A stretch of DNA of 45,520 bases from a virus (IMGVR_UViG_2579778748_000005); one strand, 5' to 3'. Positions 2,960-3,145 are shown, counted from the stretch's first letter. Numbers and translations are program-made. Notes: generated by a model not told the origin, from the letters alone.

Positions 2960-3078
2960 GGTTCGATGTCCGGTTTTAGTGTCTGTTTTTTGCGCATGTC
3001 CGGTTCATGGAAAGCATGTTTTTATATTTTTCATATGGTTAACTTGCAGAGAAACCGGACATGGATCCCGAAAAATTT
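2960..3078 (-). promoter_or_regulatory. cosB-like region with three CCGGACATG-type R-site motifs and an AT-rich bend, same architecture as the prophage cosB
   Basis: Motifs at about 2966, 2995 and 3055; roughly 80% identical by eye to prophage 41415..41558. Confidence 0.6.
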
Positions 3079-3145
3079 TCATAAATAGTGAAAACGCGCG
3101 AGGTCGCCGCCCCGTAACGGGCCATAATTCCAGGAAGGACCCGTA
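3079..3145 (-). other. Satellite cos site copy B (cosN at 3101..3112), inverted relative to copy A
   Basis: Reverse complement is identical to copy A over about 47 bp including cosN, then two mismatches in the next 18 bp. Confidence 0.75.

Follow-up and report, generated by a model that had tools for sequence, protein, structure and literature searches.

The second packaging site of an EcCICFT073-family island resembles the cosB of a common class of lambdoid prophages

Phage satellites that carry the cos site of their helper include P4 with P2 and SaPIbov5 with cos phages (also cited in PMC6092414). Among Gram-negative hosts, the prototype cos-type phage-inducible chromosomal island (PICI) is EcCICFT073 (PMC6092414, PMC6739421), in which two inverted cos sites, cos1 and cos2, flank the rpp gene. 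Here, we analyzed a 45,520-nucleotide (nt) stretch of viral DNA (IMGVR_UViG_2579778748_000005, hereafter the window) that contains a PICI and a resident lambdoid prophage. We focused on positions 2,960 to 3,145 in the island, which an initial annotation had described from the sequence alone as a satellite cosB copied from the cosB of the resident prophage. This interval is the published cos2 of the EcCICFT073 family, and, as judged by alignment, its terminase-binding part, a cosB of phage type, is a near-copy of one common among lambda-like prophages.

In the established EcCICFT073 route, cos1 and RppA are used with the small terminase subunit (TerS) of lambda, phi80, or 21-type phages (PMC6739421), the Rpp-TerS heterocomplex recognizing a PICI-specific cosB (Murialdo and Feiss 2022, PMC9026076). 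Lambda and phi80 transduce a cos2 plasmid with lowered frequency, and deletion of cos2 raises, while deletion of cos1 lowers, island transfer by both phages (PMC6092414). Because transfer is abolished only in the cos1/cos2 double deletion (PMC6092414), cos2 is a working cos site. RppA stimulates cos1 and not cos2, and cosB swaps assign this difference to cosB (PMC6739421). In that work, the PICI sites were compared only with those of lambda, phi80, and CFT073 phage 4, and their cosBs were termed "completely divergent" (PMC6739421). The EcCICFT073 papers left the reason for having two cos sites as a question (PMC6092414, PMC6739421), and we found no explanation of cos2 in the searchable literature, including Murialdo and Feiss 2022 (PMC9026076), which discusses only cos1.

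Identity of cos2 and its match to the resident prophage

The window region is 95-99% identical at the nucleotide level to E. coli CFT073 1.33-1.39 Mb, and the RppA protein of the island is identical to CFT073 c1503/RppA and has the same accession (WP_000565609.1); the island is therefore an EcCICFT073-family, Rpp-encoding PICI. Its cos2 (2962..3146, minus strand) is a complete lambda-type cos made up of cosQ, cosN, and cosB, with a packaging direction towards lower coordinates. From cosN through cosB it is 100% identical to EcCICFT073 cos2 (Fig S1A of PMC6739421; CFT073 genome), and under that name it has already been published, both as a sequence and as a cos site.

Read on the minus strand, the site has the cosQ core GGGTCCT (3136..3142), a heptamer that every aligned phage cos site also has upstream of its cosN, followed by the 12-nt cohesive-end sequence of cosN, GGGCGGCGACCT (3101..3112), which is identical to lambda bases 1-12. 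A cosN-proximal block, ATTTATGAAAATTTT (3072..3086, minus strand), is common to lambda, 21-type, and class-C cos sites (the last defined below) and to the resident prophage. Beyond it lie three repeats: an R3 equivalent, CATGTCCGG (CCGGACATG), at +50..+58 from the left cohesive end (3055..3063, minus strand), an R2 equivalent in inverted orientation at +110..+118 (2995..3003, plus strand), and an R1 equivalent, CCGGACATC, with one mismatch at +140..+148 (2965..2973, plus strand), the last identified by alignment and motif search. Homology to phage cosB stops immediately past R1.

We named the repeats R3, R2, and R1 because their positions match those of lambda and 21-type cos sites. Measured from the cohesive end, they start at 50 (+), 110 (-), and 140 (-) in cos2 and its class-C phage counterparts, compared to 53 (53-59), 114 (114-120), and 155 in lambda and 53 (53-60), 112 (112-119), and 153 in 21-type phages. 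The placement of R3 and R2 coincides across lambda, 21-type, class-C, and class-D sites (class D is also introduced below), and by this analogy the cos2 repeats would be the TerS-binding R3, R2, and R1. Between R3 and R2, in the place of the lambda I1/integration host factor (IHF) site, is an AT-rich spacer (3004..3054, minus strand). The initial annotation had listed an AT-rich bend among the shared features; the AT-rich segment is real, and we found no match in it to the IHF consensus WATCAANNNNTTR at ≥8/9 positions, whereas lambda and 21-type cos each have one. We only infer bending of this spacer.

The resident prophage cos occupies 41423..41600 on the minus strand (R1 41423-41431, R2 41453-41461, R3 41513-41521, cosN 41559-41570, cosQ 41594-41600). 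BLASTN aligned island positions 2966-3118 to prophage positions 41424-41576 in a single gapless 153-bp match with 86.9% identity (E=1e-48). The offset between the two copies is constant at 38,458 bp, such that all feature spacings are exactly kept. From R1 to just beyond cosN (2962-3121 versus 41420-41579), 134/160 positions agree without gaps (83.8%); for cosB alone (2962-3095), the figure is 111/134 (82.8%), compared to 66 +/- 4 matches and a maximum of 80 in 500 shuffles. Identity is 79.8% when only the R1..R3 segment is considered, and the 100-bp flanks on either side fall to ~47%, the random level. The similarity thus extends through cosB rather than being confined to cosN, the outcome by which the initial annotation would have been refuted, and its observation is confirmed.

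The individual shared elements that had been described were likewise recovered. The same cosN 12-mer lies on the minus strand of both copies (3101-3112 and 41559-41570), the AAAATTTTCATAAAT block is present in both (3072-3086 in the island), and so is the cosQ core AGGACCC (3136-3142 and 41594-41600). The three repeats are spaced 60 and 30 bp apart in the island and in the prophage alike, and each copy has one repeat with a single mismatch, which in the prophage is R2 (41453-41461, CCGGGCATG). The two intervals originally set against each other were unequal (186 versus 156 bp), the island interval including cosQ and the prophage interval not, and the second island cos site, at 2332-2462, had not been recorded.

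A class of prophage cosB and a second island allele

To place cos2 among other sites, we used 5426 complete E. coli genomes and 50,697 phage records. The cos2-type cosB occurs in 1185/5426 genomes (1910 places), the 5′ part of the terS gene associated with it in 1165 genomes (1840 places), and rpp in 97 genomes (104 places); these counts fit a cosB that lies either beside this terS or in an rpp island. The cosB is located 48 bp upstream of a gene for a 169-amino acid (aa) TerS in 5/5 sampled prophage copies, which span 83-94% identity, as well as in the CFT073 prophage and in PhiR12. We refer to this cosB and its TerS as class C. One protein, WP_000235436.1, is encoded by four of the five sampled copies and is also the TerS of CFT073, and the TerS of PhiR12_1 is 100% identical to that of the resident prophage.

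The island site is closer to some of these phages than to its neighbor. Five PhiR12 phages match the full cos2 at 92.4%, while lambda and the other phages listed match only over cosQ-cosN; from R3 to R1, the island has one mismatch to PhiR12_1 (~99%), compared to ~80% identity to the resident prophage. In an alignment of seven class-C phages and the island, the R3 repeat is invariant in 7/7 phage sites, and the island departs from phage-invariant columns at two positions between cosN and R1. Unlike phage class-C cosB, which precedes terS, island cos2 lies directly against the 3′ end of rpp, with no TerS gene behind it. By sequence, the cosB of cos2 is a class-C site copied without its protein, as expected for a satellite.

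The class-C TerS differs from lambda TerS in its N-terminal domain. Pfam Phage_Nu1 covers only aa 49-150, the N-terminus aligns poorly with lambda and 21-type TerS, and the N-terminal domain gave no sequence match to the solved lambda Nu1 domain in the PDB. The stretch corresponding to lambda residues 50-70, to which Rpp-escape mutations map, is not conserved. We also observed that the class-C repeat CATGTCCGG differs from the 21-type repeat CATGTCGG by one inserted C, even though the TerS DNA-binding domains are dissimilar. Class-C TerS/cosB is present in 21% of the complete E. coli genomes, often in multiple copies (e.g., O157:H7), and the full class-C cosB was found in only five PhiR12 isolates among the phage records; the class may reside mostly in cryptic or rarely isolated prophages.

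We next considered other islands. Eight rpp islands were sampled beside that of the window, flanked by four different sets of chromosomal genes. In 8/8, rpp is flanked by a pair of inverted cos sites, and in some of these islands the cosN differs. Their cos1 is conserved, and their cos2 occurs in two forms, type A, as in the window, and type B. Type-A cos2 does not change (100% identity) between islands integrated elsewhere on the chromosome or found in other strains. In type-B cos2 (L010:2490-2715, also in L008, L011, and L013; minus strand), the repeats are GGTTGTTGT and are placed at +50(+), +109(-), and +187(+).

Type B has a phage counterpart of its own. Against the phage collection it matched only over its cosQ-cosN part, and the counterpart was found only in complete-genome prophages, whose cosB we call class D (L014:2471-2700, also L015). 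By alignment, type-B cos2 and class-D cosB are 75% identical overall (~77% for cosB alone), with the three repeats in register. Class-D cosB is found in O111 and other prophages, upstream of a gene for a 168-aa TerS whose class is present in ~245 genomes. The class-D and class-C TerS proteins are identical over their C-terminal ~80 aa and have wholly different N-terminal domains (L014:2698-3204 versus window 40866-41375). The shared ~80 residues are presumed to be the half that binds the large terminase subunit (TerL), and the two proteins represent a natural exchange of domains that goes along with a change of cosB.

Compared in 40-column windows, type-A and type-B islands show 85-100% identity (mostly 95-100%) across cos1, rpp, and the gene downstream, and identity falls to ~35% only from the rpp stop codon to approximately cosN+35 of cos2. 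Because the drop is restricted to these bounds, the cos2 cosB is a discrete, exchangeable cassette. We tentatively propose, at somewhat less than even confidence, that a constant cos1 serving the Rpp-TerS hybrid is combined with an exchangeable cos2 that copies the cosB of differing TerS classes and is swapped by phage recombination between cosN and the rpp stop, thereby retuning helper range. Rpp may be unable to bind the TerS classes that cos2 copies.

Among related elements, the RppB-like islands, whose rpp is 88% identical (L006:1790-2010 and 2440-2730; L007), have a different cosN, e.g., GGGGGTACGTGTACGCGC replacing GGGGCGGCGACCTCGCG, and retain a cos1-type ACACCACCACCAC block and a type-B-like cos2.

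Packaging helpers and competing explanations

We consider it probable, though well short of certain, that cos2 is an exchangeable phage-mimic cassette that lets class-C terminases package the island without Rpp. A class-C lambdoid phage would grow lytically in a cell containing the excised, replicated island, and the phage's own class-C TerS would bind the R repeats of cos2. TerS would position TerL at the shared cosN, TerL would nick there, and island concatemers would be packaged productively from cos2 without RppA, through rpp, the att junction, and int and on to the next cos2; cos1 with RppA would be the other route, for lambda, phi80, and 21-type TerS. Four island units come to 42.6 kb, and islands of this family have been published as being packaged into phage-sized capsids. 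We take the conserved architecture, the pairing of two alleles with phage classes, and the match to phage-invariant positions between cosN and R1 as arguments that recognition is under selection, and a phage-like cos2 suggests a reason for two packaging sites in this satellite family.

Several observations weigh against this interpretation. The island R1 does not include the second half of the quasi-palindromic phage R1, and the two altered phage-invariant positions lie near cosN. Deletion of cos2 increased transfer by lambda and phi80 (PMC6092414), and RppA might also bind class-C TerS and so block the use of cos2. Type-B islands coexist with a class-D prophage in at most 1/30 cases, compared to a 4.6% background, and the co-occurrence of type-A islands with class C described below may come from clonal inheritance. 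In CFT073, moreover, a class-C prophage was no helper under mitomycin C, and there a prophage with matching cosB appears to be neither necessary nor sufficient as helper.

This last point follows from published deletions. E. coli CFT073 carries the same island and the same cos2 together with a potB prophage whose cosB is identical to that of the resident prophage and whose TerS is of the same class. In Fillol-Salom 2018, four other CFT073 prophages were deleted singly, and only deletion of #4 abolished island induction and transfer (PMC6092414). Prophage #4 is the icd prophage; its printed cos (Fig S5) corresponds to L003:44744 and is of 21-type, as is also stated in PMC9026076. Because all non-#4 prophages were deleted, the potB prophage was presumably among the dispensable ones. 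The CFT073 class-C prophage may be defective or unable to induce the island, and a helper role also requires island induction, on which a cos match is silent.

In the window, the late genes of the resident prophage, with TerL, TerS, and cos, lie at about 19-41.6 kb, its cos 38 kb from the island site. Its TerS (40866..41375, minus strand, 169 aa) is of class C, with a Nu1-like C-terminal part and a DNA-binding domain at its N-terminus that is not lambda-like, and its gpA-like TerL (38966..40951, minus strand) was taken from the open reading frame list, the CFT073 and PhiR12 homologues being annotated as terminase large subunit. We note that this prophage is a mosaic with its junction at cos (41523-42961 versus 10285-41620): leftward from cosB it is 99% identical to the CFT073 potB prophage, and rightward from cos, on the lysis side, it shares 98.4% identity with the sequence that lies upstream of cos in the icd prophage (phage 4) of CFT073.

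The initial annotation took the resident prophage, or a close relative with the same terminase specificity, to be the natural helper. The cosB homology and its linkage to one TerS uphold the relative of like specificity, and a phage with class-C terminase specificity is a plausible packaging helper on sequence grounds; a copy taken specifically from the resident prophage, and its demonstrated helper status, were not borne out. We think it unlikely that the island copied the cosB of its own neighbor, with that prophage as natural helper, notwithstanding the gapless 86.9% match with its three repeats, the cognate TerS and TerL genes beside the prophage cos, and the class-C TerS prophages in ~36/47 listed type-A genomes against a 21% background. 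The same cos2 recurs unchanged in other strains and at other chromosomal sites, its R3..R1 segment is ~99% identical to PhiR12/N64-type phages versus ~80% to the resident prophage, and in CFT073, where a prophage carries the cosB of the resident prophage, it was only deletion of #4, with its 21-type cos, that abolished induction and transfer. Helper status would additionally need an inducer of the island, which cos similarity leaves unaddressed. Local gene conversion from the neighboring prophage was rejected on the same grounds, cos2 being identical at other sites and closer to PhiR12. The resident prophage is thus a member of class C and a candidate packaging helper, not the source of the copy.

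Across the 97 rpp genomes, class-C TerS is present in 41, compared to the 21% background (Fisher p=2.7e-6, with clonality ignored), and the ~36/47 type-A genomes include many clonal ones, several CFT073 assemblies among them. Co-occurrence was not seen for type-B islands and class-D prophages; therefore, co-residence is no general property, and we rejected it as a rule. The helper may just as well be an infecting phage.

A different explanation, to which we give little credence, is that cos2 is a functionless, non-adaptive scar left where an ancestral island recombined with lambdoid phages at their shared cosN. Such a scar would sit comfortably with transfer by lambda and phi80 that was not lowered, and was even raised, without cos2, with the lack of RppA action on cos2, and with the truncation of island R1 relative to phage R1; lambdoid genomes do recombine at cos, and the resident prophage switches relatives exactly there. 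It is harder to reconcile with a two-cos layout in 8/8 sampled islands, including those with a different cosN and 88% rpp identity, or with two alleles that both keep three repeats in register with their own phage class. Type-A cos2 is also invariant among islands and keeps all but two phage-invariant positions from cosN to R1.

Finally, we regard as very improbable that cos2 is a decoy that titrates or misdirects class-C terminase and so inhibits phages that RppA may not bind, regardless of any productive packaging of the island: a replicated island would offer many copies of a near-perfect class-C cosB, EcCICFT073-family PICIs do interfere with helper packaging (PMC6739421), and neither the class-C TerS N-terminus nor the region of the lambda 50-70 escape sites is conserved, but a functional cos, with cosQ and cosN, would get a unit-length concatemer packaged instead of only tying up terminase, and the decoy largely collapses into the phage-mimic cassette.

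If the phage-mimic cassette reading is true, the use of two strategies would answer why these islands carry two cos sites. The helper range of virulence-associated islands would then be far wider than lambda, phi80, and 21-type phages, including abundant O157-type lambdoid prophages, and it could be retuned by exchange of a ~180-bp cassette. Two lambdoid packaging-specificity classes would also be defined, one with CATGTCCGG and a 169-aa TerS and the other with GGTTGTTGT and a 168-aa TerS, providing packaging-specificity studies with two natural pairs of TerS DNA-binding domain and cosB that have an identical TerL-binding half. With cos2 copying a class present in ~21% of genomes and a sister allele copying another, the two-cos question becomes experimentally approachable.

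The surrounding island and related packaging systems

The island is bounded by 31-bp direct repeats (1548-1578 and 12200-12230; island 1548..12230, unit length 10,652 bp) and sits between phoQ (1-1461) and roxA, which is followed by pepT, potAB, and then the lambdoid prophage. It encodes an integrase (int, 10944-12194, minus strand), a D5-type primase (6695-8449, minus strand), a lambda E-like major capsid protein (3946-5001, minus strand), a D-like decoration protein (3599-3934, minus strand), a single-stranded DNA-binding protein, and a helix-turn-helix regulator. Deletion of c1499/c1500, the homologues of the capsid and decoration genes, had no reported phenotype, and short stretches of the E-like/D-like genes have 76-81% DNA identity to the resident prophage E gene (34679-34970). 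At the end of the capsid/decoration operon, a terminator-like hairpin with a T-run (3147..3172, minus strand) abuts the cosQ of cos2; the consensus terminator scan did not pick it up, and direct RNA folding supports it (-18.3 kcal/mol, z=-4.4).

Between the two cos sites lies rppA, the gene for redirecting phage packaging protein (2463..2897, plus strand, 144 aa; PDB 6hlk RppC, E=5e-31). A tblastn search with RppA found no match in the 50,697 phage records, and descent of Rpp from class-C TerS received no support (BLASTP E=0.05 over 31 aa). On the other side of rppA is cos1 (2332..2462, plus strand), with cosQ at 2332-2338, cosN at 2362-2373, and an Rpp-type cosB reaching the rpp start codon. 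It is inverted relative to cos2, from which it is 740 bp apart, and its cosB is identical to that of EcCICFT073 cos1. This cosB has no repeated R sequences and is ~50% identical, the random level, to every phage cosB compared, none of which was a counterpart of it.

The segment between the two cosN sites, comprising cosB1, rpp, and cosB2 (window 2331-3143), is inverted here compared to CFT073 and to 8/8 other sampled islands. At its ends are 78-bp inverted repeats (2331-2408 and 3066-3143), 91% complementary to each other. Because at least 15 independent assemblies show the same orientation at 100% identity, the inversion is not an assembly error. A fragment cut at the inverted cosN sites would have like ends and could be religated either way, offering one possible route to inversion; homologous recombination between the 78-bp repeats is another.

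Our searches of the literature, the searchable coverage of which is incomplete, did not turn up any report that cos2 matches a class of phage cosB, that a second allele matches another class, or that cos2 has a cassette structure. The closest described element is EcCICFT073 cos2 itself, with a 100% identical cosB, the same RppA and family, the same phoQ-side integration, and two inverted cos sites around rpp; the orientation of cos1-rpp-cos2 is the difference. The cos sites of lambda and phage 21 share with cos2 an identical 12-nt cosN, the cosQ heptamer, and the placing of R3 (near +50) and of an inverted R2 (near +110), and in the phage version of cos2, as in these phages, the TerS gene begins about 40-50 bp beyond R1. 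They differ in repeat sequence (CATGTCCGG in cos2, CGTTTCC in lambda, and CATGTCGG in 21-type sites) and in R1, which is at +140 in R2 orientation in cos2 and at ~+155 in R3 orientation in lambda and 21. Class C differs further in a cognate TerS with another N-terminal domain and in having no IHF consensus at ≥8/9. The class-C/class-D TerS pair, in turn, provides natural equivalents of the lambda/21 hybrid terminases.

Compared to the cos1/Rpp system of the same island, with which it shares cosQ and cosN, cos2 has a cosB with three repeats and a phage counterpart, and it is not stimulated by RppA. In P4 and SaPIbov5, satellite DNA is recognized directly by the unmodified helper terminase, as we propose for cos2. 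Unlike in those satellites, cos2 would be one of two routes, the other being cos1 with a specificity-switching Rpp, and there are at least two alleles of the mimic cassette, each matching a different phage class.
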